A stretch of 62,459 nucleotides of DNA from assembly GCA_963839205.1 (NCBI GenBank), contig CAWITU010000006.1, positions 1 through 62,459 on the forward strand, given 5' to 3'. The notes under the pieces were generated by a model. That model searched no databases and was not told the origin of the DNA. It worked only from the letters and a program-made list of their open reading frames with translations. Every line of letters begins with the position of its first letter. The first letter of the stretch is position 1. The stretch comes from an uncultured bacterium. Its GTDB lineage: Bacteria; Patescibacteriota; Minisyncoccia; Phycocordibacterales; CAWITU01. Positions 9,683 through 59,699 of the stretch are shown here, piece by piece. Made by a program: the position numbers and the translations under genes.

Positions 9683-12376
9683 ATGAAAAAAGCTTTTATC
9701 TCGGTCTTATTAGGAGGAAGTACCTTCGCCCTAGGTTTATTCCTCGTGGGTCACGCTCTTGTCTTTGCTGCTGCCGGCACCCCACCAGTTCCTGGCAACC
9801 TAATCACCAATGCCCAAATGCAGAGTGCCTCGACGTCCCCCAATAGTCCTGATAATTGGACTACAGGTGGTTATGGATCAACAACCATAACTTATAACTA
9901 TCCACTGCCTGGGCCACAACCTGGGGACGTTGCTGCGAAAGTTACTTTGTCCAATTATGTAAATGGAGCAGGTGAATGGTTTTTCCAAAATGTTCCTGTC
10001 GTAGGTAAAAACGTATATCAATTTGCAGATTCATACAATTCAGATATTGAAAGTAATATTATCGCTCAATGGACTTTGAGTAATGGTTCATTTGCATATG
10101 ATGCCATTGCGACACTCCCACCAACTAATGGTGCATGGGCAAATACTCCACAAGAAGTTTTTCCGGCTCCAGCTAATGCGGTTTCGGTTACCGTTCTTCA
10201 TTTGATTACAAATACTAACGGTACTCTAGAGACCACAAATTACGCACTCACAAATTATGTTCCAACTGGCCAAGGTGCTTTTTCTAAAGCTATGGTGTCA
10301 TTAACTTTTGACGATGGATACACATCACAATTCTTTAACGCTAATCCAATTTTAAGTGCCGCTGGTATTCCAGGAACCTATTACATAATTACTGATCCAA
10401 TTCTTGAAGCAACAGCCAATCCCTCAGTAAATATGTTTATTGGCTCTGGTATTTCAACTTCAACTGTTACCTCTACATCAACCGTAAAGTGGGGAGACAT
10501 CACTAACTCTGGTACAGCTGGGGCAATATACACTGACCCAACTTACCAAATTTATACATTTACTGACACTTATACATCCACAGCTTCAAGTTCTATAACA
10601 GTTGATTACTGTTCCGTTGCCACCGTTGGAAACTGTGCTCCAGGGAATGTACTCGCAATGAATATAGGTTCGGTGCCAGCGGGTAATAATTTACAGACTG
10701 ATATTTCATTTACTCTTCCAACCATAGGGGGTAATACCGTAACACCAATCAGTATTATTCAAAGCCTAAATCAGAGTGGTTCAATTACAGTTTCAAATCC
10801 ATCACTTGTTGAGTATCAAACTTATATGACTGAATCTGAGCTTCAGACCCTCCAAGCTGAAGGTAATGAAATAGACTCGCATACAAAAACACATCCAGAC
10901 CTAAGCTTGATAACATTAACCACAGCAAGTTCGACTGACGAAATTCTTGGTTCACGTACGGCGCTATTATCTTTTGGAATGACTCCAGCCGACGGCTTTG
11001 CTTATCCATTTGGAAATTACAATACTAGTGTTAAACAGATGGTTGGAAGTTCTGGATATGATAATGCTCGAACAGTAGACGTCGGTTTCAATTCAACATC
11101 AAGCGACCCGCTACTTCTTAAGAGTGAGAGTGTCACTGCATCCACAACATTAGATACCGTTGAATCATGGATTGATACAGCAGTCGCAAATAAATGGTGG
11201 TTGGTAATTACTCTTCATGATGTTGACCCAGCAGATATCATTGCTAAGAATGGCGAAACTTATGCTGTTACGCCAGCCATGCTCCAAAGTATTGTCTCTT
11301 ATCTTAAGAGTGCTAAGCAGAGTGGTAGCTTAAATGTTACAACTATGGATCAAGGTCTTGCTGTGTTAAATAATTCAACGCCACCACCTCCACCACCAGT
11401 TCCAACGATTGCAATTACTCCGACAACATTACCTAATGGAACCGTTGGTACTTCGTACAGTCAAACACTATCCGCATCAACGACTGCCACAGGTCCATTC
11501 ACTTGGTCTGTTTCATCCGGCTCATTACCTCAAGGTCTAATACTTAACGCTTCTTCAACAACAATTTCTGGAACTCCAACAACGGCTGGAACATCAACAT
11601 TTAATATTTTTGTGACAAATGGTACCGCATCAACAACAAAAACTTATAGTATAGGTATCAATAGTGCACCGGTAATAGGCACACCAATCACAATCACCCC
11701 AACAACCTTACCTAATGGCACCGTCGGCACCTCATACAGTCAAACCCTAACCGCATCTACAACTGCCTCAGGTCCATTCACTTGGACAGTTTCATCAGGT
11801 ACCTTGCCACAAGGTCTAACCTTTGATGCATCGTCAACAGCTATCACCGGAACTCCAACTACTGCAGGGTCATCCAATTTTAACGTCACAGTTACTAACG
11901 GTACCGCTTCAACTACTCAGCCGTATAGTCTAACTATTGATGCTGCGCCAGTTCAGTCTTCTGGCGGGGGTGGTGGCGGAGGAGGTGGTAGTGGCGCAGC
12001 TGTTTACTATTCTGGTGGCGGAGGGGGTGGAGGATCGTATTCCTCCTCGGTCTCAACTACCACTAGTACGACAACACCAACTGTTGTAATCATCGGAAGT
12101 TCAACTCAATCAACAACGACTCCAACCACAACACCACCAGTTTTGTCACTATTCCGATTCACACATTATCTATATTACGGCCTTCATCATCCAGATGTAA
12201 TGGAACTACAAAAGCGATTAATGTCCGAAGGGTTCTTTAATGGGCCAATCACTGGTTACTTCGGACCACTCACTAGAGCTTCTGTAATGGCCTATCAAAG
12301 AAGTCATCACATCTCTGTGGTTGGGAGCGTTGGCCCGCTTACCCGAGGATCGCTCAATGAGAGTTTTGGAGGATAG
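9683..12376 (+). CDS. Secreted multidomain cell-envelope protein: NodB-type polysaccharide deacetylase, 2 Ig-like repeats, Gly-rich linker, peptidoglycan-binding domain
   Basis: Signal peptide. TFDDGY and DSHTKTHPDL deacetylase motifs. Two ~93-aa repeats (TPTTLPNGTVGTSYSQTL...GPFTW.VSSG.LPQGL). G8/G7 runs. C-terminal PG_binding_1-like YYGLHHPDVMELQKRL...GYFGPLTRASV. Confidence 0.8.
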   Translation: MKKAFISVLLGGSTFALGLFLVGHALVFAAAGTPPVPGNLITNAQMQSASTSPNSPDNWTTGGYGSTTITYNYPLPGPQPGDVAAKVTLSNYVNGAGEWFFQNVPVVGKNVYQFADSYNSDIESNIIAQWTLSNGSFAYDAIATLPPTNGAWANTPQEVFPAPANAVSVTVLHLITNTNGTLETTNYALTNYVPTGQGAFSKAMVSLTFDDGYTSQFFNANPILSAAGIPGTYYIITDPILEATANPSVNMFIGSGISTSTVTSTSTVKWGDITNSGTAGAIYTDPTYQIYTFTDTYTSTASSSITVDYCSVATVGNCAPGNVLAMNIGSVPAGNNLQTDISFTLPTIGGNTVTPISIIQSLNQSGSITVSNPSLVEYQTYMTESELQTLQAEGNEIDSHTKTHPDLSLITLTTASSTDEILGSRTALLSFGMTPADGFAYPFGNYNTSVKQMVGSSGYDNARTVDVGFNSTSSDPLLLKSESVTASTTLDTVESWIDTAVANKWWLVITLHDVDPADIIAKNGETYAVTPAMLQSIVSYLKSAKQSGSLNVTTMDQGLAVLNNSTPPPPPPVPTIAITPTTLPNGTVGTSYSQTLSASTTATGPFTWSVSSGSLPQGLILNASSTTISGTPTTAGTSTFNIFVTNGTASTTKTYSIGINSAPVIGTPITITPTTLPNGTVGTSYSQTLTASTTASGPFTWTVSSGTLPQGLTFDASSTAITGTPTTAGSSNFNVTVTNGTASTTQPYSLTIDAAPVQSSGGGGGGGGGSGAAVYYSGGGGGGGSYSSSVSTTTSTTTPTVVIIGSSTQSTTTPTTTPPVLSLFRFTHYLYYGLHHPDVMELQKRLMSEGFFNGPITGYFGPLTRASVMAYQRSHHISVVGSVGPLTRGSLNESFGG
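11398..11955 (+). repeat. Tandem ~279-bp coding repeat (2 units) inside the surface protein
   Basis: The unit starting ~11414 recurs at ~11693 and encodes near-identical Ig-like modules. Confidence 0.85.
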
Positions 12377-14373: not shown

Positions 14374-14754
14374 ATGGATAAAGATAAAATCAAAAAAGAA
14401 AATCCGGAACTTTATCACGTCGCATATGAGAAGGGTACAGAGGCACCGTTTACTGGGAAGTACGTGCATAGCGAAGAAGATGGAATGTATAAATGTGCGG
14501 TTTGTGGGCAGGATCTTTTCAAAAGCGACGCAAAATTTGACTCTGGTACTGGCTGGCCAAGTTTTGATGAAGCGATTCCTGGAAGTGTAAAACCTGAAGA
14601 AGATAGTAGTCTTGGAATGAGCCGCACCGAAGTCATCTGTTCCCGGTGCGGCTCCCACTTGGGCCATCTCTTCAACGATGGCCCAACTAAAACCGGCAAA
14701 CGGTATTGCCTAAATTCCGTTTGCCTAGATTTAAAACCTGAATTGGACAACTGA
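14374..14754 (+). CDS. msrB: Peptide-methionine (R)-S-oxide reductase MsrB
   Basis: 126 aa with CxxC pairs, the GTGWPSF motif and RYCLNS catalytic Cys region. Confidence 0.9.
   Translation: MDKDKIKKENPELYHVAYEKGTEAPFTGKYVHSEEDGMYKCAVCGQDLFKSDAKFDSGTGWPSFDEAIPGSVKPEEDSSLGMSRTEVICSRCGSHLGHLFNDGPTKTGKRYCLNSVCLDLKPELDN
14619..14654. repeat. Intragenic GC-rich hairpin in msrB (11-bp perfect stem)
   Basis: GAGCCGCACCG, 14 nt, CGGTGCGGCTC, within the codons for SRTEVICSRCGS. Confidence 0.9.
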
Positions 14755-14784
14755 TAATTTTGCGATAAAATAAGGGCTTGTTTT

Positions 14785-14858
14785 GGGCCTATGGTATAGC
14801 AGTAACACGCGTCCATGGCATGGACGAGTCCGGGGTGCGATTCCCCGTAGGTCCACCA
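14785..14858 (+). tRNA. tRNA-Ala (anticodon GGC), CCA encoded
   Basis: Acceptor GGGCCTA/TAGGTCC with G3:U70, anticodon loop ATGGCAT, T-loop GTGCGATTCCCC, 3' ACCA. Confidence 0.85.
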
Positions 14859-18401: not shown

Positions 18402-18750
18402 TGGCTTGGATCGGGTAATCGCCCCTGCGTAGCTTTAGCGAAGCAGGGGAGGAAAGTCCGAACACTTGTCAGCCATGTTGGCTAGACAGCAGAGTAGCGG
18501 GTAACGCCCGTCTGGAGCAATCCAAGAGGTGCGAGCAGAGACGCCGGTATCCGAAAGGGTAGGGCATCCTTATGGGATGAGTCTGTTATAGCAAATAGAG
18601 AGTGAAACGGCAAAATCCTTACTTAAGTGCAAGGCCGTGCCCCAATGGGGAGTGCCGCTTGATTCCAAAAGTAATTTTGGAACTAGATAAATGATTATCC
18701 ATGTCTACTTTGGTAGGCTGGACAGAATTCGGCTTATAGATCCAAGTCCA
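18402..18750 (+). ncRNA. rnpB: RNase P RNA, bacterial type A
   Basis: P1 CTTGGATC/GATCCAAG and the conserved GAGGAAAGTCCG, GGGTAACGCCC and ACAGAATTCGGCTTATAG blocks. TATAAT at 18390-18395. Confidence 0.85.
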
Positions 18751-18756
18751 TACATG

Positions 18757-18796
18757 AAAACCACCCTAGGCTTAGACCGAGGGTGGTTTTCTTTTT
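18757..18796 (+). terminator. Intrinsic terminator after rnpB
   Basis: AAAACCACCCT...AGGGTGGTTTT followed by CTTTTT. Confidence 0.8.
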
Positions 18797-18825
18797 ATCG
18801 TCTCTGCCTATATAATGAGCCCAAC

Positions 18826-20505
18826 ATGAACCGGATTTTCCGCTTCTTTCATTCAGAAACAAATGGCATACACCAGGCAGCATATCTGTTGGCATTTTTT
18901 TCATTTCTTTCTCAGATATTAGCTCTCTTTCGAGATAGGTTGTTGGCTGGAATTTTTGGAGCTTCGTCTTCTCTTGATATTTATTATGCGGCTTTTCGAA
19001 TTCCAGATTTTATTTTTGCTACGGTCGGGTCAATGGTTTCCATTTCTATTCTGATTCCATTTTTAACTAGATGGGGGGAATCAGACAATGAGAAAACTAA
19101 AAAATTTCTCGACTCGATGCTTTCAGGATTTTCGATAATTATGATTGTGGTCTGCGGTATCACTTTTGTCATAATTCCTTATCTTGTTAGTTTTATTCTT
19201 CCTGGTATTACAGATCCCAAAAATGTTCACGAACTAATTAATATCACAAGAATTCTCTTGTTATCACCACTTTTTCTTGGCTTCTCAAACCTTTTGGCCA
19301 CGATTACCCAAATGCACAAAAGGTTTTTCCTTTATAGTTTGAGCCCAATTGTTTATAACCTATCAATTATGGTTGGTGCAGCCTTTCTTTCAACACGCTT
19401 TGGTATATATGGCGTTATTTTTGGAGTTGTCTTTGGTTGTCTTCTCCATTTTGCCATTCAAATTCCTTATATTCTTGAAAAGGGGCTCTTACCTAGGTTT
19501 ACATTCCATCTCGATTTTAATGATATAAAAGCGGTTTCACTACTATCAATTCCTAGAACGATTGCTTTGTCAGCAAGCAATATTGCTCTAATCTTTATAA
19601 CTTCTTTTGCTTCTCTCATGTCCGTTGGTTCAATTGCAATTTTTAACTTTTCAATTAATCTTCAGTCAGTGCCACTCTCTATTATTGGAGTAAGCTACGC
19701 CTCGGCAGCTTTTCCAGTCTTGGCACTTCTATACTCCTCTGGCGAAACAAAAAAGTTTATTGACCAAACAGTTACTGCTGCTCGCCACATACTATTTCTT
19801 TCATTGCCAGTCACTACGCTCTTTATTGTTCTCCGTGCCCAGATAGTTAGAACGATTCTTGGAAATGGAATGTTTAATTGGGTTGATACTAGATTGACCG
19901 CTGCTTGCGTTGCTCTTTTTTCTATATCATTAATTGCACAAGAATTAGATCTTCTATTTGTCAGGGCATACTACGCTTCGGGTAATACTCGGAAACCTCT
20001 CTATATTAATGCGGCGACGACCGTTGGTGATATTGGTTTTCCTTTTATTTTGATTCTCATCTTTGAACATTACCCAATGTTCCAATATTTTATTGAGAGT
20101 CTTTTTAAGGTTGATGGTCTGCCGGGAACAGTAGTACTCATGCTTCCTCTTGGTTTTTCGATTGGCGAAATTCTAAATTTAGTTGTCTTCTGCTATTTCT
20201 TTAATAAGGACTTTGGAGGATTCTTAGCACCTATTTGGAAAACATTCCGTCAGTCTTTTGTGGCGTCTGTGATTATGGCTTTTGCAGCTTATATTTCACT
20301 TCCATTTTTTTCAAGTATTTTTAGTACCGACACCTTGATTGGAATCTTTTCTCAAGGATTTTTTGCGGGAATTACTGGTATTGCAATCGGTATATTAGTA
20401 TTAATGGCGCTTAAAAATAAAGAATTATTTGAATTATATGAAGTTGTACATAAGAAGATCTGGAAACCAACTGAGGTTATCGTGCCAGGTCCTGAGAGTA
20501 TATAG
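18826..20505 (+). CDS. murJ: Lipid II flippase MurJ (MviN family)
   Basis: Start taken at MNRIFRFFHSE... because the upstream part of ORF 18691 overlaps rnpB. ~14 TM helices and typical ...LALFRDRLLAGIFGAS...YYAAFRIPD. Confidence 0.85.
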   Translation: MNRIFRFFHSETNGIHQAAYLLAFFSFLSQILALFRDRLLAGIFGASSSLDIYYAAFRIPDFIFATVGSMVSISILIPFLTRWGESDNEKTKKFLDSMLSGFSIIMIVVCGITFVIIPYLVSFILPGITDPKNVHELINITRILLLSPLFLGFSNLLATITQMHKRFFLYSLSPIVYNLSIMVGAAFLSTRFGIYGVIFGVVFGCLLHFAIQIPYILEKGLLPRFTFHLDFNDIKAVSLLSIPRTIALSASNIALIFITSFASLMSVGSIAIFNFSINLQSVPLSIIGVSYASAAFPVLALLYSSGETKKFIDQTVTAARHILFLSLPVTTLFIVLRAQIVRTILGNGMFNWVDTRLTAACVALFSISLIAQELDLLFVRAYYASGNTRKPLYINAATTVGDIGFPFILILIFEHYPMFQYFIESLFKVDGLPGTVVLMLPLGFSIGEILNLVVFCYFFNKDFGGFLAPIWKTFRQSFVASVIMAFAAYISLPFFSSIFSTDTLIGIFSQGFFAGITGIAIGILVLMALKNKELFELYEVVHKKIWKPTEVIVPGPESI

Positions 20506-20535: not shown

Positions 20536-22335
20536 ATGGATTTGAAGCACATCAGAAATTTCTCAATAATAGCCCATATAGACCATGGTAAATCTACCTT
20601 GGCGGATAGGTTGTTGGAGGTGACCAATACTATTGAAAAACGCAAAATGCATGACCGGGTTCTTGATGATATGGAGCTGGAAAAGGAAAAAGGGATTACG
20701 ATTAAGATGCGTCCAGTTAGGATGGAATACCAAGGTTATATTCTCAATTTAATTGATACTCCAGGACATATAGATTTTTCATATGAAGTGTCGCGCGCCA
20801 TCAAGGCAGTTGAAGGGTCAATACTTTTGGTGGACTCGACACAAGGAGTACAGGCGCAAACGCTCACGACGCTCGGGATGGCGCGCGAATCGGGTCTTAC
20901 GATTATCCCAGTTCTAACTAAGATTGATTCTCCACTCGCTCGGGTTCCTGAAGCAACTGAGGAGCTAGCGGAACTTTTAGGTAGTTCGGAGGATGATGTT
21001 ATTTTAACGTCTGGGAAAACCGGAGAAGGCGTTGAAAAACTTCTGCAGGAACTTATAAAGAGAGTGCCGCCGCCCGAGAGTCCTTCGGACTCTCCCGTGG
21101 GCGGCGGTGGAAACGATTCTCGTTCTCTTATTTTTGATTTCCAATATTCAAATCATACTGGCGTAATTATTTTTGCACGAGTAATGGATGGAACTGTCGC
21201 TAAGGGCGACGCGCTTATTTTTAAAGCTTCTGGTGAGAGATTCACTGCTCTTGAAGTCGGAGTTTTTACGCCTGACGCATCACCGAGAGAATCTCTCTCT
21301 GCTGGGGAAATCGGTTATATTGTAACTGGTATTAAAAGACCAGGTATTGCTTCAGTTGGAGATACCGTCTCTGGAATTCGTTCGAGACTTCCAGCTCTAC
21401 CTGGCTACATGACTCCGTCACCAGTAGTCTGGGCATCAATCTATCCTGAAAGCCAAGATGATTTTGAAATGTTAAAACAGGCTTTGGGAAAACTTCGATT
21501 ATCGGATTCATCTTTTACTTACGAAGAAGAATCATCGGGAACACTTGGGCGTGGGTTTAGATGTGGTTTCCTCGGACTTCTTCACCTTGAAATTATTACT
21601 GAGCGTTTGAAAAGAGAATTTAATTTAACTCTTGTTGTTGCCACACCCTCAATTACTTATGAAGTTGAATATAGGAATGGTAAAAAAGCCACGATTTATT
21701 CACCGGCATTATTTCCAGAACAACACGAAATAGTTTCGGTGCAGGAACCGTTAGTTAAAGTTAAAGTTATTACGCCATCGGAATATATCAGCCCGATTAT
21801 CCAACTATTGTTTGATCACGAGGGTGAAGTTATCGAGACCAAAACTAAGCACGATAATCGCTCGGAGCTCACTATCAGGATGCCTCTTCGGGAACTTATG
21901 AGGAATTTTTTTGATGAAATAAAAAGTGTTTCGTCGGGTTTTGCTTCGCTTTCCTATGAATTTGATGGATCTCGCAAAGCAGATGTAACTCGATTAGATA
22001 TACTGGTGGCAGAAGAAATTGTTCCCGCATTTTCACGTGTGGTAGCAACTCGAAGAATTGAGATTGAGGCTGAGAAGGCTGCCGAAAATTTATATAAAGT
22101 TTTACCTCGCCAAATGTTTGCAACCAAAATTTGGGCAAAGGGTTTAGGAAGAATTATTTCTTCAAGAACTCTTCCTGCCATGCAAAAAAATGTTACCCAA
22201 CATATGTATGGAGGGGACAGAACTCGCAAAATGAAATTATGGAAGAAACAGAAAGAAGGGAAAAAAAGAATGAAGGCCGAGGGTACGGTCAATATTCCTC
22301 ACGATGTTTTTATTAAGATGATGAAAGGAGAATAA
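20536..22335 (+). CDS. lepA: Elongation factor 4 (LepA)
   Basis: 599 aa with GTPase motifs AHIDHGKST, DTPGH and TKID, plus the LepA C-terminal domain. Confidence 0.95.
   Translation: MDLKHIRNFSIIAHIDHGKSTLADRLLEVTNTIEKRKMHDRVLDDMELEKEKGITIKMRPVRMEYQGYILNLIDTPGHIDFSYEVSRAIKAVEGSILLVDSTQGVQAQTLTTLGMARESGLTIIPVLTKIDSPLARVPEATEELAELLGSSEDDVILTSGKTGEGVEKLLQELIKRVPPPESPSDSPVGGGGNDSRSLIFDFQYSNHTGVIIFARVMDGTVAKGDALIFKASGERFTALEVGVFTPDASPRESLSAGEIGYIVTGIKRPGIASVGDTVSGIRSRLPALPGYMTPSPVVWASIYPESQDDFEMLKQALGKLRLSDSSFTYEEESSGTLGRGFRCGFLGLLHLEIITERLKREFNLTLVVATPSITYEVEYRNGKKATIYSPALFPEQHEIVSVQEPLVKVKVITPSEYISPIIQLLFDHEGEVIETKTKHDNRSELTIRMPLRELMRNFFDEIKSVSSGFASLSYEFDGSRKADVTRLDILVAEEIVPAFSRVVATRRIEIEAEKAAENLYKVLPRQMFATKIWAKGLGRIISSRTLPAMQKNVTQHMYGGDRTRKMKLWKKQKEGKKRMKAEGTVNIPHDVFIKMMKGE
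20791..20888. repeat. Long-range 12-bp perfect inverted repeat in lepA enclosing 74 nt
   Basis: TCGCGCGCCATC (20791-20802) pairs with GATGGCGCGCGA (20877-20888). Confidence 0.85.
21067..21107. repeat. Intragenic nested GC hairpin in lepA (9 + 8 bp)
   Basis: CCGCCGCCC-GAGAGTCC-ttc-GGACTCTC-ccgt-GGGCGGCGG, coding PPPESPSDSPVGGG. Confidence 0.9.
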
Positions 22336-25428: not shown

Positions 25429-27050
<1,622 letters not shown>

Positions 27051-27057
27051 TTAATTA

Positions 27058-27999
27058 TTAAACGGTTAAGGCTTCGGCACCGGCGGTGATCTCGGTGATT
27101 TCTTTGGTAATGGTTGCTTGGCGCGCTTTGTTATATGAAATGCTAAGAGATCCAATAAGCTCCTTGGCATTGTCTGATGCACTTCTCATCGCAACCATAC
27201 GAGAAGAATGTTCAGCGGCGTTGGACTCTAGGATACAACTGTAAATTTCAACATTTAAAAGTATTGGAATTATTTCTGCTAAGACAGCCTCAACTGATGG
27301 TTCAAAAAGATATTGTGCTTGTGTTTTTTTGTCAGTTTCTTTGAAAGCTTCTGGAAGTCCAGAGTAACGGCCAGATTCAGGAATAATATTTTTAATTATT
27401 TCCTCAATTGTTTTAACTTCAACTGGAATTAATTCTCTCTGAATGACTTGCTGTTTGAGTGCAGAAAGAAAGTTTGTATAAAAAATAATGACTTTGTTGT
27501 AGTTACCTGATAGGTAAGAGTCTTTAATAAATTCAGAGATTGGAACGGTTTTCTCGATTGAGGTTATGTCACCATTTCCAATAAATTCAGCTGGTACATT
27601 GTAGCCGCGGCGTTTAAAGTAGTTAACGCCGCGACGGCCGACAGCAACGATATCGGCCGTGTCTTTTTTGTCCGCGCCGCCAATAAATTTCTCGGCGGCG
27701 CTTATAACCTTACTATTCAAAGATCCAGCTAGTCCTTTGTCCGAAGTAATAACTAAAAGGCAGGTCTTACCAGTTTTTCTTTTTTGGAAGAATGGGGAGG
27801 CGGCAATTTCCCGAGCAGAAACGTGCGCTCGAATATTTTTGAGAACTTTGAGAGCGGACAATGCGTAAGGTCTCGCCGAAATTGCTGCCGCTTCACTCTT
27901 TCTCATTTTTACAGCCGAAACTGCTTCCATCGCTTTGGTAATTTGGCGAATATTCTTAGTTGCCTTTATTCGGTTTTGGATTACTCTTCCGGTTGCCAT
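27058..27999 (-). CDS. atpG: ATP synthase gamma subunit
   Basis: 313 aa, N-terminal ...IKATKNIRQITKAMEAVSAVKMRK and C-terminal ITKEITEI..GAEAL. Confidence 0.9.
   Translation of the reverse strand: MATGRVIQNRIKATKNIRQITKAMEAVSAVKMRKSEAAAISARPYALSALKVLKNIRAHVSAREIAASPFFQKRKTGKTCLLVITSDKGLAGSLNSKVISAAEKFIGGADKKDTADIVAVGRRGVNYFKRRGYNVPAEFIGNGDITSIEKTVPISEFIKDSYLSGNYNKVIIFYTNFLSALKQQVIQRELIPVEVKTIEEIIKNIIPESGRYSGLPEAFKETDKKTQAQYLFEPSVEAVLAEIIPILLNVEIYSCILESNAAEHSSRMVAMRSASDNAKELIGSLSISYNKARQATITKEITEITAGAEALTV
27606..27701. repeat. Three tandem GC hairpins in atpG (9, 8 and 8 bp)
   Basis: CGCGGCGTT/AACGCCGCG (27606-27633), ACGGCCGA/TCGGCCGT (27634-27660) and GCGCCGCC/GGCGGCGC (27674-27701). Confidence 0.9.
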
Positions 28000-32339: not shown

Positions 32340-34373
32340 ATGGGATTATTCAAATTATCGACAAAATTTAGCCCGGCCGGGGATCAGCCAAATGCAATCA
32401 AAGAATTGGTGGCTGGACTCAAAAAAGGTTTCCGAGAGGAGACTCTTCTTGGTGTGACTGGGTCCGGTAAGACTTTTACGGCCGCTAATGTTATTACTCA
32501 AATAAATAAACCGACTTTAGTTATTGCTCACAATAAAACACTCGCCGCTCAGTTGGCTCAGGAATATCGGGAATTTTTTCCAGAGAATGCTGTTCATTAT
32601 TTTGTTTCTTATTACGACTACTATCAGCCGGAAGCGTACATGCCGGTGTCTGATACATATATAGAGAAGGAGGCGATGATCAATGAAGAGATTGATCGCC
32701 TGCGTCACGCTTCGACGCAGGCGCTTTTGACTCGACGCGACGTCATTATCGTCGCGTCGGTCTCCTGTATCTATGGTTTAGGTTCTCCAGTTGAATATGA
32801 AAAAGTAAATTTGAGGATTGAGGTTGGACAGAAAATTGGCAGAGCCGAACTTCTCCGAAAATTAATTGATATTCATTTTGAAAGGACGAATGCTGACTTA
32901 GATCCTGGATTGTTTCGCGCTATTGGTAATTCAATAGAAATAATGCCCGTTAGTGAAAAAGTAATTTACAAAATTGATTTTGATGGAGAGAAAATTGGAA
33001 CAATTTTGAAAGTGGATGCGATTTCTAGAAGTATCATTGAAGAGATTAAAACTTTCTTCCTATTTCCAGCGAAGCACTTCATTACTAATGAAGACGAGAA
33101 AAACCGAGCTCTAAAAAGTATTAAAGAGGAATTGAATGACCAATTAGCCGTATTTGAAAAAGAAGGAAAGCTTCTTGAAGCTGAACGATTAAAACGCCGA
33201 ACTAATTATGATCTGGCTCTTATTAGAGAAGTCGGTTATTGCAATGGTATTGAAAATTATTCTAGACATTTTTCTGGAAAGGGCCCAGGTGAGCCACCAG
33301 ATTCACTGCTTTCATACTTTCCCTCGACTACGCTCGGGACAGGTCCAAACAAAAAGCAGGTTCCTGATTTTCTAACCATTATTGATGAATCTCACGTTAC
33401 AGTTCCTCAATTAAATGGAATGTACGCTGGAGATGCCTCCAGAAAGAAGACTCTTATTGAGCACGGATTTCGTCTTCCGTCCGCTGCCGATAACAGGCCA
33501 CTTAAATTTCCAGAATTTATGGAACGGGTTGGACAGATTATTTATACCTCAGCTACTCCAAGTAATTATGAAAGGACACAAAGTAAATTAATTGTTGAAC
33601 AAGTGATTAGGCCAACTGGTTTAGTTGACCCAATGATTGAGGTTAAACCAATTGTTGAAAAAGGAAAATATAAAGGACAGATTTTTGATTTTATTGAGCA
33701 AGCTGAGATTGAAATCAAAAAAGGTAATCGTGTCATTGCAACCACGCTTACTAAAAAAATGGCGGAGGATTTAAGTGAGTACCTCAAAGAGAAAAAAATT
33801 AAAGCTGAATATCTTCACAGTGATATTGAGACACTAGACCGCATCGAAATATTAACAAATTTTCGTAGAGGCAAATTTGATGTGCTTGTTGGGGTTAACC
33901 TTCTTCGTGAAGGATTGGATTTACCAGAATTAACTCTTATTGGAATTTTGGATGCGGACAAGGAAGGTTTTTTGCGTTCGGATACTGCTCTCATTCAGAC
34001 AATTGGAAGGGCGGCGCGTAATATCGATGGTCGCGTGATCCTATATGCCGACCACATGACAGGTTCGATGGAGCGATCGATCGGAGAAACCACGCGCCGC
34101 CGCACTCTTCAAACAAAATACAATAAAGACAATGGCATTACTCCAAAAACAATCATTAAGAAAATAAAAGATATCACTGAAGAGATGAGAACTGATCGCG
34201 AGAAGGCTGCAACAGAGCTTGCTCGCATTGATGAATCACGTTTTAAGAAAAATCCGACAAAACTTATCAAGGAAAAAGAAAAGCAAATGAATGACGCCGT
34301 TAAAGTTCTAGACTTCGAAACCGCCGCTCTAATTCGAGATGAAATTAGACTTTTGCAGTCTAAAAACAAATAG
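32340..34373 (+). CDS. uvrB: Excinuclease ABC subunit B
   Basis: GVTGSGKT, DESHVTVPQ, QTIGRAARN and the C-terminal UVR domain. Confidence 0.95.
   Translation: MGLFKLSTKFSPAGDQPNAIKELVAGLKKGFREETLLGVTGSGKTFTAANVITQINKPTLVIAHNKTLAAQLAQEYREFFPENAVHYFVSYYDYYQPEAYMPVSDTYIEKEAMINEEIDRLRHASTQALLTRRDVIIVASVSCIYGLGSPVEYEKVNLRIEVGQKIGRAELLRKLIDIHFERTNADLDPGLFRAIGNSIEIMPVSEKVIYKIDFDGEKIGTILKVDAISRSIIEEIKTFFLFPAKHFITNEDEKNRALKSIKEELNDQLAVFEKEGKLLEAERLKRRTNYDLALIREVGYCNGIENYSRHFSGKGPGEPPDSLLSYFPSTTLGTGPNKKQVPDFLTIIDESHVTVPQLNGMYAGDASRKKTLIEHGFRLPSAADNRPLKFPEFMERVGQIIYTSATPSNYERTQSKLIVEQVIRPTGLVDPMIEVKPIVEKGKYKGQIFDFIEQAEIEIKKGNRVIATTLTKKMAEDLSEYLKEKKIKAEYLHSDIETLDRIEILTNFRRGKFDVLVGVNLLREGLDLPELTLIGILDADKEGFLRSDTALIQTIGRAARNIDGRVILYADHMTGSMERSIGETTRRRTLQTKYNKDNGITPKTIIKKIKDITEEMRTDREKAATELARIDESRFKKNPTKLIKEKEKQMNDAVKVLDFETAALIRDEIRLLQSKNK
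32697..32759. repeat. Two tandem 10-bp perfect GC hairpins in uvrB
   Basis: CGCCTGCGTC-acgcttc-GACGCAGGCG and CGACGCGACG-tcattat-CGTCGCGTCG, within the codons for the conserved RLRHASTQALLTRRDVIIVASV. Confidence 0.95.
34010..34101. repeat. Long-range 10-bp perfect inverted repeat in uvrB enclosing 72 nt
   Basis: GGCGGCGCGT (34010-34019) pairs with ACGCGCCGCC (34092-34101), coding GRAAR and TRRR. Confidence 0.85.
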
Positions 34374-37366: not shown

Positions 37367-38659
37367 ATGATACAATATATTAATAATAAGTCAATGAGTT
37401 ATCCACAAGCCAATTTATCGATAAAAAACAAAGTTAATAAGCTCCCAGATACTCCTGGAGTTTACTTTTTTCTAGGTTCAAAAAAAGAAATACTTTATAT
37501 CGGCAAAGCCACTTCACTTAAAGACAGGGTGAAGAGTTATTTTTCAGGAGGACTATTTGAGGCTAGAGGTCCACTTATTTAAAAGATGGTCGGGGAAGCC
37601 AAAAGTATAGATTTTAAAAAGACTGATTCAGTACTTGAAGCGGTTTTGCTAGAAGCTGACTTAATAAAAAAATTCCAACCTAGATATAACACTAAAGAAA
37701 AAGACGATAAGAGTAATAATTGCGTTGTCATAACAAAAGAGTCATATCCGAAGATTTTAATTGTTCGTAAAAAAGACCTCACCGAACTTAAAGCTTCAGG
37801 TCAGAAATTTAAAGATGTTTTTGGCCCATTTCCATCGGCTGGAATTTTACGCGAAGCTCTAAAAATTATTCGAAAGATATTTCCATACCGTGATGAAAAA
37901 TGTGTTTCTTACGAGGAACAAATTAATAAGGGAAAAGTTCCAAAACCCTGTTTTAATCGACAAATTGGTCTTTGTCCTGGTGTTTGCACTGGTGAAATAT
38001 CAAAAATAGATTATGCAAAAACTATTAGAAATATAGAACTTATGTTTCAGGGTAAGAAAGATAGACTAATTCAAAAACTTGAAAGGGAAATGAAAGTTTC
38101 TGCTAAGAAAAGGGAATTCGAAAAAGCTGGTGAGGCTAGAAATAATATTTATGCACTAAAACATATCCAAGATGTTTCCTTGGTTAAGGTTGACGATTCT
38201 CCCTCTGTCCCGGCCGAAACTTTTAGGATTGAATCTTATGACATTGCTCATATGGGTGGAGGAAATACTGTTGGCGTAATGGTAGTTTTGGAAAATCGTC
38301 TTGCTAAAAAGGATGACTACAGAAAATTTCGGATTCGACAAAAGACAGGTGGTGATGATCTTGCTGCGCTCAGAGAAGTTATCACCAGAAGGTTGGGACA
38401 TCCAGAGTGGCCGACAGCTGATCTTGTTGTAATTGACGGCGGCCCGACCCAGCTTCGGGCCGCCGAGAGTCTTTTCCCAGAAAATACTAAAATAGTTTCG
38501 GTAGTTAAGGATGCAACCCATAAACCTGATCACATTCTCGGGAACCCAGAAATTATCAATAAATATAAGAAGGAAATCCTTCTTTCAAACTCTGAATCCC
38601 ACCGCTTTGCTATTGCGTATCATAGGAAAAGAAGGGGTAGTACTTTTAAAAAAGTGTAA
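37367..38659 (+). CDS. uvrC: Excinuclease ABC subunit C with an in-frame TAA at 37580-37582
   Basis: GIY-YIG N-terminus (PGVYFF...ILYIGKA) and ORF 37586..38659 are in the same frame, separated by a single stop (...[16 protein letters not shown]...). Confidence 0.85.
38437..38465. repeat. Intragenic GC hairpin in uvrC (11 bp)
   Basis: CGGCGGCCCGA-cccagct-TCGGGCCGCCG, coding [11 protein letters not shown]. Confidence 0.9.
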
Positions 38660-49929: not shown

Positions 49930-50530
49930 TTGGGCTTTCAAGAAGAGCTCACTATTCTCAAAAGACTTTCATCACCGATTAAAATTCAGGATTTTCTTGA
50001 TAGTTTGCCGATTAATTTTGAGAAAGGCGGGGAGACCTACATGTCTCCCCGCCGAGTTTTGCAAACTGGAAAAGCTCATTGCCTGGAGGGGGCACTACTT
50101 GCCGCACTGGCATTGTGGCTTCAAGGTGAAGAGCCACTATTACTTGATTTAAGAAGTGTTCCATCTGATATTGATTCATGTTGTTGCTTTGTATAAGCGT
50201 AATGGTTATTGGGAGCGATAAGTAAGACTAATCACTCAAGTCTTCGTTTTAGAGACCCAGTTTATAAAACTCCCCGTGAACTAGCTGTATCGTATTTTCA
50301 TGAATATTTCGTGAATGAGACTGGTAAGAAGACACTTCCGAAGTTATGCGAATCCATTTAATCTTAAGAAAATTAAAACTAATTGGATAACAGCCGAAAA
50401 AGAACTTTTTGAAATTCCGGAAATTCTTATGCGCAAAAACATTTTCCAATTTACCCTGAAGCAAATCAGAAATATATTCGTAAAGGCCGATCAAATGGAA
50501 AGAAGGGCGGGGAACTTATTGAATTTATAA
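49930..50530 (+). CDS. Transglutaminase-like / papain-fold candidate, frameshift near 50185
   Basis: GKAHCLEGALLAALAL (Cys) in ORF 49930..50196, then DIDHVVALYKRNGYWGAISK (His) after a frame switch. The tail is in ORF 50315..50530. Confidence 0.45.
50026..50053. repeat. Intragenic GC hairpin (11 bp) in the transglutaminase-like gene
   Basis: GGCGGGGAGAC-ctacat-GTCTCCCCGCC. Confidence 0.9.
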
Positions 50531-50567
50531 GCCTATAGAAGGAGTTTAATTTGTTAACATTATTCTA

Positions 50568-51518
50568 ATGTCAAAGAAAATTCTATTATCTGGAGTAAAA
50601 CCAACCGGCCGACCTCATATAGGCAATTATTTTGGTGCCATGAAGCAGTTTGTTGATATGCAGGATAAATTTGATTGCTTCTATCATGATTCCTGATTAT
50701 CATGCTCTAAATACTATTCAGGATGGTAAGCAGATGAAAGAACTCATACTTGATTTGGCATTAGATTATCTCGCTATTGGACTTAATCCAGATAAAGTAA
50801 ATATCTTCAAACAATCCGATGTGTTAGAACATACGGAGCTTGCTTGGATTTTTGATGCCATTACAACGATGCCATATTTGATGAGAGCGCATGCCTTTAA
50901 GGATGCTGAAGCAAAAAATAAAGAAATAACCGTTGGGACTTTTAATTACCCAATGCTTATGGCTTCGGATATTCTTCTCTATGATGCGGACGTTGTGCCG
51001 GTTGGCCTTGATCAGAAACAGCATGTTGAAATTACTCAGAGATACTGCCGAAAAATTTAATAGAATTTTTGGGGAAGTATTCAAGTTGCCAGAGGCTTTA
51101 ATTATGAAAGAAGTTGCTGACTATTCCTGGTATCGATGGTCAAAAGATGAGTAAAAGTTATAACAATACCATTCCACTTTTTGCGACGGATGCAGAAATT
51201 GAAAAAGCTGTAATGGGTATTGTGACTGATTCGTCCGGTGAGTTGCCAGTCAATGTTTACAATATCCACAAACTTTTTAGAGACACAGAATATTTGGATA
51301 AGTTGTACTCTGAAAATAAGGGTAAGTACAAAATATTAAAGGAGGCCTTGATTGCAGATTTGAAAGCTTTGATTTCACCGCTTAGAGCTAATAGAGCTAA
51401 ATTTGAGAATGATATTGAGAAAGTGAAAGAGATTTTGGAAAAGGGAAAAGCGGCCGCGCAAGGTCGCGCGGCCGCCAAAATGGCTTCTGTCCGCTCCAAA
51501 ATTGGCGTAAGTTTTTAA
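50568..51518 (+). CDS. trpS: Tryptophan--tRNA ligase, at least 3 frameshifts
   Basis: [24 protein letters not shown] (HIGH) and KMSKS at ~51140, in pieces across frames 3, 1, 2 and 3. Confidence 0.85.
51450..51475. repeat. Intragenic GC hairpin in trpS (10 bp, all G/C)
   Basis: GCGGCCGCGC-aaggtc-GCGCGGCCGC, 43 nt before the stop codon. Confidence 0.9.
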
Positions 51519-55444: not shown

Positions 55445-56354
55445 CAGTGAGGTAATGGTTGTTGGTGGAATTATGATTGCACTCGCTCTCATTATTTCTT
55501 ATGCCAGTGAAGTAGTTAATTGGAAAGCGACAGCCGCAATAACTTCTTCAAGCACAGTTCTCGCTGATAACATCCCTAACCCATTTGATAATGTTTCTAT
55601 TACAGCTCAAAGTGCCTATGTTTATGATTTGAAAACAGGGACGATGCTTTACGAAAAAGATGCTGATGTTGTAAGACCATTAGCATCGCTTACAAAACTA
55701 ATGACTGCACTAGTTGCTTCAGAGGAACTTTCAACATCGAGCGTTGTGACTATTACTCAAGAGGCATTGGACCAAGATGGTTCTAACGGCCTTGTTTTGG
55801 GTGAGCGCTTCACCTTCAAAAACCTCCTGAATTTTACACTTATGGTTTCATCTAATGCCGGTGCCGCCGCCATCGCCGAGGCGGCGGCGCCGACTAGTCC
55901 CACCGAATTCATTACCGACATGAATTCTAAAGCTAACGAACTCGGGTTCAACTCACTTCTTTTCTATAATCCAACTGGTCTGGATGTTTCAACTGCTGAA
56001 TCCGGTGGATATGGTTCTGCTAAAGACATTAGTAATTTATTTATTTATATCCTTAGTCATAATCCAGACATTCTTTCAAACACAAAATATCCTAGTGGCA
56101 GTTTTACATCGTTAAATGGAATCGTGCACACTATTTCTAACACAGACGTCGCTATACCACACATCACTGATATAATTGCTTCCAAGACAGGTTATACTGA
56201 TTTGGCTGGTGGAAATGTTATTGTTACTTTTGATGAAGATATCGGACATCCGATACTTATTACGATCCTTGGTTCAACATTTGATGGTAGATTCACAGAT
56301 GCCGAGACATTAGCATCAACCACAATGGCTTATTTCACTTCCCATGATAACTGA
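55425..56354 (+). CDS. Serine-type D-Ala-D-Ala carboxypeptidase (PBP5-like)
   Basis: SxxK (SLTKLMT), SxN (SSN) and KTG (SKTGYT) motifs, with an N-terminal TM anchor. Confidence 0.8.
   Translation: MFRQKISSEVMVVGGIMIALALIISYASEVVNWKATAAITSSSTVLADNIPNPFDNVSITAQSAYVYDLKTGTMLYEKDADVVRPLASLTKLMTALVASEELSTSSVVTITQEALDQDGSNGLVLGERFTFKNLLNFTLMVSSNAGAAAIAEAAAPTSPTEFITDMNSKANELGFNSLLFYNPTGLDVSTAESGGYGSAKDISNLFIYILSHNPDILSNTKYPSGSFTSLNGIVHTISNTDVAIPHITDIIASKTGYTDLAGGNVIVTFDEDIGHPILITILGSTFDGRFTDAETLASTTMAYFTSHDN
55861..55890. repeat. Intragenic GC hairpin in the D-Ala-D-Ala carboxypeptidase gene (9 bp, 11 with one G-U)
   Basis: GCCGCCGCC-atcgccga-GGCGGCGGC, coding AAAIAEAAA. Confidence 0.85.
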
Positions 56355-58568: not shown

Positions 58569-59699
58569 ATGAAAATTTTACTTACAGGAGGCGGAACCGG
58601 AGGACATTTCTATCCGATTATTGCTATTACAGAAGAATTAATTCAATTATCTAAAGAGAAGAAGCTCTTAAAGCCAAAAATTTATTACATGGCTGATTCT
58701 CCATACAATCCAAGAATTCTTTTTGATCACGATATAATTTTCAAAAAAGTTTCAGCAGGGAAGATGAGGAGGTATTTCTCTGTTTCAAATTTCTTTGATT
58801 ACTTTAAAACCGCTTTCGGATCAATGAGTGCTGTATGGCAGTTGTTCTTCCTTTTTCCAGACGTAGTTTTTGGAAAGGGTGGATATTCCAGCTTTCCTGC
58901 TGTCTTTGCTGCTAGAATTCTGGGTATTCCAGTAGTGATTCACGAATCTGATAGTGAACCGGGTAGAGTAAATGCTTGGGCAGGGAAATTTGCAAAGCGC
59001 ATCGCTCTTTCATATCCAGAAGCAGCAAAATATTTTCCAGAAGGTAAAACAGCTTTTACTGGTAATCCTGTTAGGTCTGAGATAAAAATTCCTGCAACAA
59101 GTGGTGCCAAGGAATATTTGAATCTTGAAACAGGGGTGCCAACGATTGTCGTCCTCGGTGGATCTCAGGGTAGTAAAAAAATAAACGATGTCATTTTAGA
59201 TGCTTTGCCTGATTTGGTTTCAAAATATCAGGTTATTCATCAAACTGGTGTTAAAAATTTTAAAGAAGTCAGGGGGGTAGCAGACTTAATTCTTCAATCA
59301 AACAGTAATGCTTCGCGATACAAGCCATTTGATTATTTAAACAATTTAGCGATGCGTATGGCCGCAGGGGCGGCAGATTTGGTTATTTCACGATCTGGGT
59401 CAACTATATTTGAGATTGCAATTTGGGGGCTTCCATCAATTCTCATTCCAATTCCAGAATCTGTAAGCCATGATCAAATAAAAAATGCTTTTAGTTATGC
59501 TTCAACTGGGGCGGCGGAAATTATTCAGGAAAACAATCTTACCCGTGAGGTTTTTGTAAGTGAAGTTGAAAGGGTTATGGGGAATACTGCACTTAAGGAC
59601 AAAATGCGTGCGGCGGCTCGGGCTTTTGCAAAGCCCGACGCCGCACGCAAAATCGCTGAGCAGATTATTGAGATTGCTCTGACTCACGAAACTGACTAA
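58569..59699 (+). CDS. murG: UDP-GlcNAc:lipid I GlcNAc transferase
   Basis: GGGTGGHFYP N-terminus and the VISRSGSTIFE motif. Confidence 0.9.
   Translation: MKILLTGGGTGGHFYPIIAITEELIQLSKEKKLLKPKIYYMADSPYNPRILFDHDIIFKKVSAGKMRRYFSVSNFFDYFKTAFGSMSAVWQLFFLFPDVVFGKGGYSSFPAVFAARILGIPVVIHESDSEPGRVNAWAGKFAKRIALSYPEAAKYFPEGKTAFTGNPVRSEIKIPATSGAKEYLNLETGVPTIVVLGGSQGSKKINDVILDALPDLVSKYQVIHQTGVKNFKEVRGVADLILQSNSNASRYKPFDYLNNLAMRMAAGAADLVISRSGSTIFEIAIWGLPSILIPIPESVSHDQIKNAFSYASTGAAEIIQENNLTREVFVSEVERVMGNTALKDKMRAAARAFAKPDAARKIAEQIIEIALTHETD
59605..59649. repeat. Intragenic nested hairpin in murG (11 + 8 bp)
   Basis: TGCGTGCGGCG-gct-CGGGCTTT-tgc-AAAGCCCG-a-CGCCGCACGCA, 50 nt before the stop codon. Confidence 0.95.

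Follow-up and report, generated by a model that had tools for sequence, protein, structure and literature searches.

An in-frame GC-rich hairpin in the EF4 gene lepA and its probable origin by fold-back template switching

Introduction

How can a housekeeping gene come to carry a stable, GC-rich palindrome inside its reading frame? The question is raised by lepA, the gene for translation elongation factor 4 (EF4), in contig CAWITU010000006.1 from an uncultured bacterium whose genome is Patescibacteria/Paceibacteria-like. The whole 62,459-nt stretch that was analysed (62 kb) is referred to here as the window. The gene lies at 20536..22335 (+ strand), where the list of open reading frames (ORFs) gives an uninterrupted frame of 599 aa. 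A first-pass annotation of the window had pointed out two features in lepA, a 12-bp helix formed by distant arms and a nested hairpin, and had proposed that the hairpin is an in-frame insertion reminiscent of Rickettsia palindromic elements (RPEs) or mitochondrial GC clusters.

Taken alone, the lepA hairpin is most likely an ordinary mutational scar in a tolerant linker and an instance of a known phenomenon. More specifically, we assign a probability of roughly 60% to the explanation that it is the scar of a fold-back template switch, which produced an inverted duplication tolerated in a disordered linker of the protein. The recurrent association of hairpins with insertions across the EF4 of Paceibacteria is the more interesting by-product of the analysis.

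The lepA product is ~75% identical to EF4 of Paceibacteria and contains the Pfam domains GTP_EFTU, EFG_III, EFG_C and LepA_C. Its top homologs are proteins from metagenome-assembled genomes (MAGs) labelled Paceibacterota, Parcubacteria and similar, at no more than 75% identity, and the protein itself has no record in public assemblies.

Structure and codon usage of the hairpin

The nested hairpin occupies 41 nt (21067-21107) and consists of 9 + 8 Watson-Crick pairs (17 in all), a 3-nt loop and a 4-nt bulge in the order CCGCCGCCC-GAGAGTCC-ttc-GGACTCTC-ccgt-GGGCGGCGG, and it encodes the peptide PPPESPSDSPVGG. Both this arrangement with its peptide and the pairing of the 12-bp helix proved to be exactly as first described. 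The outer 5' arm CCGCCGCCC (21067..21075, + strand, as for all parts of the hairpin) is made up of the conserved PPP codons of residues 178-180, written in rare codons, and the inner 5' arm GAGAGTCC (21076..21083) encodes E181, S182 and P183. Fold prediction places the TTC loop at 21084..21086. The inner 3' arm GGACTCTC (21087..21094) lies inside the codons of S184, D185, S186 and P187, and after the bulge CCGT (21095..21098) the outer 3' arm GGGCGGCGG (21099..21107) takes in the wobble base of V188 and the codons of G189, G190 and G191. The four bulge nucleotides and the 17 nt of both 3' arms add up to 21 nt, or seven codons, and the frame is kept. In both the minimum-energy and the centroid structure of RNAfold, a weaker outer extension enlarges the stem-loop to 21060..21121, in which GAGAGT (21060-21065) pairs with ATTCTC (21116-21121) and G21066 with T21108.

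The minimum free energy (MFE) of the RNA in a 76-nt context is -39.9 kcal/mol, corresponding to z = -4.9 against dinucleotide shuffles, and the hairpin is the most stable fold (-37.6) among ~12,500 sliding 60-nt segments across the 62 kb. When synonymous codons for the same peptide were redrawn from the codon usage of the window, the energy was -20.4 +/- 3.5 kcal/mol and 0/3000 draws reached the observed value, which is 5.5 standard deviations (sd) below the resampled versions. The stability is accompanied by a marked compositional bias. The hairpin has 78% GC in a gene of 42% and a window of ~39.5%, and GC at third codon positions is 0.71 in the hairpin as against 0.34 for the gene. Several of its codons are infrequent in the window, namely CCG (0.14, used twice), CCC (0.08), GTG (0.14) and GGC (0.15, also twice).

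The fold is nearly as stable on the antisense strand (-36.7) as on the sense strand (-37.6), and the stem is purely Watson-Crick; the strongest coding hairpins of the window are equally stable on either strand. This strand symmetry fits a copy made at the DNA level and gives no sign of selection on RNA, which would tolerate G-U pairs.

The two sides of the hairpin differ in their conservation. P178 and P180 are invariant in a 40-sequence alignment, and PxP is kept in all orthologs. In contrast, the Gly tract of the outer 3' arm occurs in none of 119 homologous proteins or ~90 orthologous loci. Judging from these alignments, the hairpin as a whole is no independent insert, since conserved PPP codons supply the outer 5' arm and novelty is confined to the Gly-rich 3' arm.

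Extra residues in the interdomain linker

The linker between the G domain and domain II comprises residues 181-197 (ESPSDSPVGGGGNDSRS; 21076..21126, + strand). Measured from PPP to LIFDF, it is 17 aa long in the window, 12 aa in the closest relatives (75% identity) and 10 aa in solved EF4. The window LepA matches EF4 of T. thermophilus (5imq) with E = 7e-163, and in the HMMER alignment a 7-residue gap in that protein (PPPKGDPEAPLKALIFD) faces GGGGNDS, giving a net excess of 21 nt over classical EF4. Relative to the 12-aa linker of the closest relatives, for example DEEIIDSPSFRA, the excess is 5 aa or 15 nt. The ortholog alignment thus confirms the indel, and the segment is not of normal length in this lineage. 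The earlier estimate of about seven extra residues holds against T. thermophilus EF4 and drops to five against the closest relatives. Similarly, the excess length coincides with the hairpin as had been proposed, but the conserved PPP in the 5' outer arm means that the hairpin is not wholly inserted.

Across 84 distinct orthologous sequences, linker length has its mode at 11-12 aa and ranges from 10 to 58 aa, and this PPP-LIFDF segment is the most length-variable part of EF4 in the clade. An AlphaFold2 (AF2) model based on the 40-sequence alignment predicts a helix at 166-176, a coil at 177-195 and a strand at 196-205, with a per-residue confidence (pLDDT) below 50 at 184-191. In this model the added residues fall within the disordered linker that joins the G domain to domain II at the protein surface.

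Over the hairpin region the closest relatives fold at only -17 to -19 kcal/mol, and the nucleotides cannot be aligned there. A gap of 15 nt is introduced by MAFFT, but the 40 nt around it are unalignable. At the peptide level there are at least two equally plausible alignments, in which either ESPS of the window corresponds to DSPS of the relatives or the second DS of the window corresponds to their DS.

Hairpins and insertions in other lepA orthologs

The fold z-score of the linker DNA was computed for every ortholog that was fetched. All 65 linkers shorter than 15 aa gave values between -1.9 and +2.0, and the five lowest z-scores in this survey, including that of the window (z = -4.6), all belong to linkers that bear insertions. 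The ortholog L070 has a 43-aa linker with a 21-bp perfect GC-rich stem (z = -6.3). The linkers of L045 (58 aa, z = -5.4) and L074 (56 aa, z = -4.3) each contain an in-frame imperfect palindrome of ~100-150 nt with both arms within the insertion, and that of L067 is 37 aa long (z = -3.5). We also note that an internal segment of L045 seems to run in one and the same direction on the two arms, a possible spacer inversion.

In a prospective test on the DNA of four more long-linker homologs, one was strongly structured. This is L105 (lepA at 501-2339), whose 22-aa linker forms a perfect stem of 25 bp, CAGAAACGGGGTCAGGAGCCCTTTT / AAAAGGGCTCCTGACCCCGTTTCTG, around a loop of 16 nt (z = -11.8). The stem covers the whole linker, from the last PxP codon to the codon directly before LVFDF, and it is the most extreme coding hairpin found in this analysis. 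Altogether, z-scores of -3.5 or lower were obtained for 6/23 linkers of at least 15 aa and for 0/65 shorter ones (Fisher P = 1.9e-4). In five Paceibacteria lineages besides the window, insertions into this EF4 linker therefore contain hairpins of high significance, and the linker hairpins of different lineages show no sequence similarity to one another.

The association extends beyond the linker. The 84 distinct lepA coding sequences contain seven perfect stems of at least 12 bp, where 0.3 are expected from synonymous-codon shuffles. Five of these seven overlap lineage-specific insertions, against 3.7% for a random 15-codon footprint (P = 1.3e-6); insertions hold only 1.5% of the residues. Three of the five lie at another variable loop, located in the G domain and not at a domain boundary, and in each of them one arm consists of conserved codons and the other is the edge of the insertion. 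The stem of L076 has 17 bp, with YQGE as its left arm; that of L063 has 13 bp, with ILNLID as its right arm; and that of L079 has 12 bp, with RMAW as its left arm. Where perfect stems come without an indel, they occupy quasi-palindromes that are intrinsic to the codons, such as SPAE/SAGE in L066 and L076.

One linker hairpin has a partner elsewhere in its genome. In MAG JBAZRX01, 23 nt of the lepA linker hairpin (CATCTTTTCGAGGCGAGGCCTCG; L088/L070, at L088 4690-4744) are identical to an intergenic hairpin of 10-11 bp on a different contig (L087 4391-4433), which occurs once in that genome. The shared 23-mer could be the mark of a repeat family, of inter-locus template switching or of misassembly. 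The arm of L045 has no second copy in its own genome.

Proposed origin of the hairpin

Fold-back and template-switch mutation is an established mechanism (PMC8794818, PMC5453318, PMC5941160) and a recognized source of perfect hairpins and of multi-residue coding changes (PMC8794818, PMC5941160, PMC8604942, PMC6649704). Applied to lepA, it would have operated in an ancestor of the lineage, in which DNA synthesis through the linker briefly switched template. The nascent strand would have folded back, or copied the complementary strand in an intra- or inter-strand event, and a reverse-complement copy of PPP and the adjacent E-S-P codons would have been written a few bases downstream. The outcome would be the nested 9+8-bp perfect inverted repeat, with a net gain of 15 nt over the closest kin (21 nt over classical EF4). 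Probably more than one step was involved. Since a plain 17-nt copy would shift the frame, the 4-nt bulge would either have arisen within a complex event or be what is left of ancestral bases that separated two successive copies. The insertion would have been tolerated because it is located in a disordered surface linker, and the hairpin as such probably serves no function.

Template switching may either create a new inverted repeat together with an insertion or perfect an existing quasi-palindrome, and the same process would act genome-wide and clade-wide, possibly including the 12-bp helix. GC-rich stems would be favoured because stable stems nucleate fold-back more readily. Purifying selection would keep only in-frame outcomes in tolerant loops, so that hairpins would cluster at two indel-tolerant sites of EF4.

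The lepA hairpin has the features expected of such a mutation in that one arm is ancestral and the other derived, and in that its sequence is locally unique in the data searched. Relative to outgroups, the change is specific to the lineage, with a net +15 nt against relatives of 75% identity, but whether four switch points would explain it is less clear-cut, as the region is unalignable and the bulge exceeds one simple event.

Several observations weigh against this explanation. A single simple fold-back predicts a perfect 17-bp stem, and the bulge of 4 nt calls for either a further step or a more complex event. Rare GC-rich codons are found in both arms, with a joint frequency of ~0.002 for CCG CCG CCC encoding PPP; such a bias would not follow from the simple copying of an average ancestral arm, and either selection for stem stability or a stability-dependent mutation bias has to be added. 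In L045 and L074 the hairpins have both arms within the insertion, and the 23-nt match of L070 to an intergenic hairpin indicates that at least part of the class may have arisen otherwise than by strictly local copying. A gap-placement test, in which inserted DNA was compared with the reverse complement of 45-nt flanks, found reverse-complement matches of at least 9 nt for 3/41 insertions and direct matches for 2/41; this test is noisy and was replaced by the hairpin-overlap test given above. Finally, the nearest relative in the databases searched has 75% amino acid identity, at which distance the ancestral state and the switch points are not reconstructable.

Alternative explanations

The hairpin might instead be a selected structure, a stem-loop that slows the ribosome after the stall-prone PPP at a domain boundary and thereby aids co-translational folding, that stabilises the mRNA, or that binds a protein. 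We regard this as unlikely. Selection would account for the rare GC-rich codons in both arms, the conserved PPP included, and for an MFE 5.5 sd under that of recoded versions of the same peptide. It would also agree with the strong hairpins at the same domain boundary in six lineages and with the ~50-fold enrichment of GC-rich stems in the coding sequences of the window (10 vs 0.2 expected). Nevertheless, the closest relatives have no structure at the hairpin site, 17/23 long linkers have no significant fold, and a hairpin with an insertion is also found at a loop that is not a domain boundary. The stems are pure Watson-Crick and strand-symmetric, with no reliance on G-U pairs. The hairpin matches no Rfam family (best E = 3.9, far under the gathering score), and a terminator scan of the window did not report it as an intrinsic terminator. 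The sequence 5' of the stem (CTT ATA AAG AGA GTG), read by eye, contains no slippery heptamer. A conserved functional mRNA structure would be expected to recur in orthologs with compensatory changes, and no supporting covariation is seen.

A mobile palindromic element similar to RPEs, to mitochondrial GC clusters, or to repetitive extragenic palindromic (REP) elements and elements of the miniature inverted-repeat transposable type (MITEs), inserted in frame into lepA, is an improbable source of the hairpin. The first-pass annotation had drawn the analogy with RPEs and GC clusters, and the coincidence of a GC-rich palindrome in an AT-rich genome with an in-frame insertion is indeed what such an element would produce. 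For the class as a whole, this explanation is kept alive by the L070 arm, which shares its 23 nt with an intergenic hairpin of the same MAG, and by L045 and L074, in which both arms lie inside the insertion. However, the outer 5' arm of the window hairpin consists of conserved PPP codons and is not inserted DNA, and the palindrome can therefore not have arrived as a unit. Similar hairpin cores elsewhere, which the analogy would predict, were not found. The 62-kb window contains no second copy with up to 3 mismatches, the GTDB representative genomes and the JGI metagenome contigs contain none, and blastn-short against all fetched orthologous loci gave none. The hairpins of different lineages are unrelated in sequence, the L045 arm is single-copy in its own genome, and the intergenic form of the L070 hairpin occurs once. 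The GC hairpins of the window have no common consensus. The bases preceding the stem are AGAGTG, with no REP-type GTAG/CGTC tag, and at 41 nt the hairpin is far below the ~150 bp of RPEs (PMC10969869).

An equally doubtful proposal is that ordinary slippage or an indel gave a Pro/Ser/Gly-rich linker, in which the complementarity of the genetic code then made a hairpin by coincidence. Pro (CCN) and Gly (GGN) codons, as well as E-S-P and D-S-P, are complementary by code, and the peptide alone averages -20.4 kcal/mol under codon resampling. The same effect is visible in the 12-bp helix, where ~8/12 pairs are forced by SRA/MARE, and in L066 and L076, which have perfect stems on SPAE/SAGE without an indel. 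For the hairpin itself, coincidence is excluded statistically by the resampling (0/3000), and all wobble positions match across the 17 pairs with the use of rare codons. Nor would the clade-wide association of long stems with insertions (P ~1e-6) be expected.

An artefact of assembly or sequencing, such as a chimeric fold-back read in the contig, is very improbable: soil-metagenome run X1, the only one to hold the organism (runs X2 and X3 gave nothing), has it at 2-3x depth with no contig over 20836-21315, and a nearby TrpS-like gene is broken by frameshifts, so that the contig is not beyond suspicion, but the change is internal and keeps the frame, both flanks are collinear with orthologs, analogous in-frame hairpins are present in at least eight independent assemblies from different studies, and fold-back chimeras usually yield large inverted junctions or contig-end palindromes.

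The 12-bp long-range helix

The second feature of lepA is formed by two perfectly reverse-complementary arms 74 nt apart. The 5' arm TCGCGCGCCATC (20791..20802, + strand) covers the codons of S86, R87, A88 and I89 in the conserved SRA(L/I) motif, and the 3' arm GATGGCGCGCGA (20877..20888, + strand) covers codons of (G)MAR(E) in the conserved MARE motif. TCN CGN GCN is intrinsically complementary to GCN CGN GA, and ~8/12 pairs are expected from the peptides and the codon usage; the probability of 12/12 pairs for an SRAI/MARE pair is ~8e-4. In orthologs 4-10 of the 12 positions pair, so the helix is not conserved. The helix is only weakly beyond chance and owes most of its pairing to two conserved peptide motifs whose codons are complementary.

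For the helix to be perfect, the wobble bases must be rare, GC-rich ones and residue 89 must be Ile (ATC), a position occupied by Leu in at least 90% of homologs. This ATC reads as the reverse complement of GAT in the partner arm (G and AT belonging to adjacent codons), and the helix would accordingly be either the upper tail of chance or a product of quasi-palindrome correction. Perfect inverted repeats of at least 12 bp whose arms are 20-150 nt apart occur 11 times in the window, where Markov simulations give 0.83, which makes such a correction plausible, if unproven. A distant ortholog, L063 (SRAI/QMARQ), also has Ile; it uses the same GC-rich codons and forms 10/12 helix pairs, and this may be a parallel quasi-palindrome correction.

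Other coding hairpins and features of the window

GC-rich perfect hairpins of 9-11 bp in rare codons are also found within other housekeeping genes of the window. In a count that relied on crude ORF calls and perfect stems with loops of 3-30 nt, and that includes some stems in short, possibly miscalled ORFs or near gene ends, coding stems that reach 10 bp number 14, where synonymous shuffling predicts 2.0; eight reach 11 bp against 0.55, and ten are GC-rich against 0.2. The excess of GC-rich stems, on what look like conserved motifs of UvrB, UvrC, ATP synthase and other proteins, suggests that this genome displays the process, or a selection for stem stability, with unusual clarity.

Two of these hairpins lie in the UvrB gene, at 32697-32723 and 32733-32759, encoding RLRHASTQA and RRDVIIVAS, and one in the UvrC gene at 38437-38465; we take all three stretches to be conserved motifs. 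Others are located in the genes for ATP synthase gamma (27606-27633) and epsilon (25469-25511), D-Ala-D-Ala carboxypeptidase (55863-55888) and MurG (59605-59649), and a further GC-rich hairpin is at 51450-51475.

Three observations concern structured or irregular regions of the window. A class I tRNA synthetase (Pfam tRNA-synt_1b, TrpS/TyrS-like) at ~50500-51518 is split over at least four reading-frame segments and is the only obviously broken long gene that was noticed; it may be a pseudogene or reflect sequencing frameshifts or recoding. The gene at 9683-12376, for a large secreted-type protein with polysaccharide deacetylase, He_PIG and PG-binding domains, contains a Gly-rich low-complexity stretch (11941-12065) with a strong fold on the sense strand only (-28.2 vs -13.4). 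A 133-aa ORF at 14415-14816 (- strand) has no Pfam hit, carries three successive perfect hairpins of 9-11 bp (14619-14725) and overlaps a tRNA-Ala (14785-14858, + strand). Rather than a gene, it may represent structured, non-coding DNA or RNA.

The neighbourhood of lepA is conserved. The order MurJ-lepA-DivIC is kept in relatives, with MurJ on the 5' side and a DivIC-like gene followed by an RNA-methyltransferase-like gene on the 3' side; in relatives a glutaredoxin gene sits between the latter two. A bacterial class A RNase P RNA (119.7 bits) at 18403-18752 (+ strand) extends into the 5' end of the longest MurJ ORF (18691-20505), and the true MurJ start must therefore be further downstream.

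Significance

On this reading, the EF4 linkers exemplify template switching that goes beyond the perfecting of repeats and lengthens the loops of a housekeeping protein in frame, recurrently and independently, across a clade with reduced genomes. Such insertions give multi-residue changes in one step. They mimic the insertion of mobile elements, "conserved" RNA structures or positive selection, and can mislead alignment, phylogeny and RNA-structure scans.

A further-reaching possibility, which at present is rather speculative, is that Paceibacteria, members of the candidate phyla radiation (CPR), carry an undescribed class of short, low-copy, often GC-rich coding hairpins that are actively maintained or spread by hairpin-specific copying between loci and expand protein loops in frame. 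The 7- to 50-fold excess of perfect stems in coding sequences of the window, the rare codons, the six lineages at the EF4 linker and the 23-nt identity hint at it. If it exists, such a class would be a bacterial counterpart of RPEs or of the coding palindromes of Nematomorpha.

Comparison with known systems

Yeast mitochondrial GC clusters can sit in frame in var1. Like the REP elements, which are extragenic, high-copy GC-rich palindromes with GTAG/CGTC tags (PMC3733652), they resemble the lepA hairpin as short GC-rich palindromes in AT-rich DNA. Both are high-copy and have a consensus, whereas the lepA hairpin is intragenic, is single-copy in the data searched and has neither consensus nor tag. 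RPEs are likewise palindromic DNA within the reading frame of housekeeping genes, where the fold of the protein allows it. As far as they are described by Ogata et al. 2000 via PMC10969869, they are ~150 bp long, form multi-copy families with a conserved peptide, and have a palindrome that comes entirely from outside the gene. What the lepA hairpin shares with them is the in-frame position at a structurally permissive site, here a coil linker of low model confidence. In the data searched it belongs to no multi-copy family, and it is not a 100-150-bp, wholly foreign sequence.

For the coding palindromes found in the mitochondria of Nematomorpha, template switching is the suggested origin (PMC6649704). 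As in lepA, these are perfect inverted repeats in translated genes, gained and lost between species. They reach up to 284 bp, number many per genome, and have conserved residues on both arms without an indel. This is in contrast to the lepA hairpin, with its 41 nt, one novel arm and an indel. The UvrB and UvrC hairpins of the window, presumably located on conserved motifs, are closer to the Nematomorpha type.

In coding sequences of yeast, template switching homogenises the arms of inverted repeats, alters several adjacent residues and recurs in parallel with no need to invoke adaptation (PMC8604942), and in these respects it is similar to what is seen in EF4. Most yeast events affect a few residues, by substitution or by inversion of a spacer, while the Paceibacteria EF4 linkers carry insertions of 5 to ~45 residues.

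The closest correspondence is with template-switch mutations as formulated in the Ripley model and in the four-point model of Loytynoja and Goldman (PMC8794818, PMC5453318, PMC5941160). Common to both are a lineage-specific, perfect Watson-Crick inverted repeat that appears as a clustered change or insertion, one pre-existing arm together with its reverse complement in unique, local sequence, and more perfect inverted repeats across the genome than expected, increasingly so for longer arms. The lepA hairpin departs from typical cases by its 4-nt bulge and its strong GC and rare-codon bias, and by its location in an essential-type housekeeping gene, where the change is filtered for reading frame and adds 5-7 residues to the protein.

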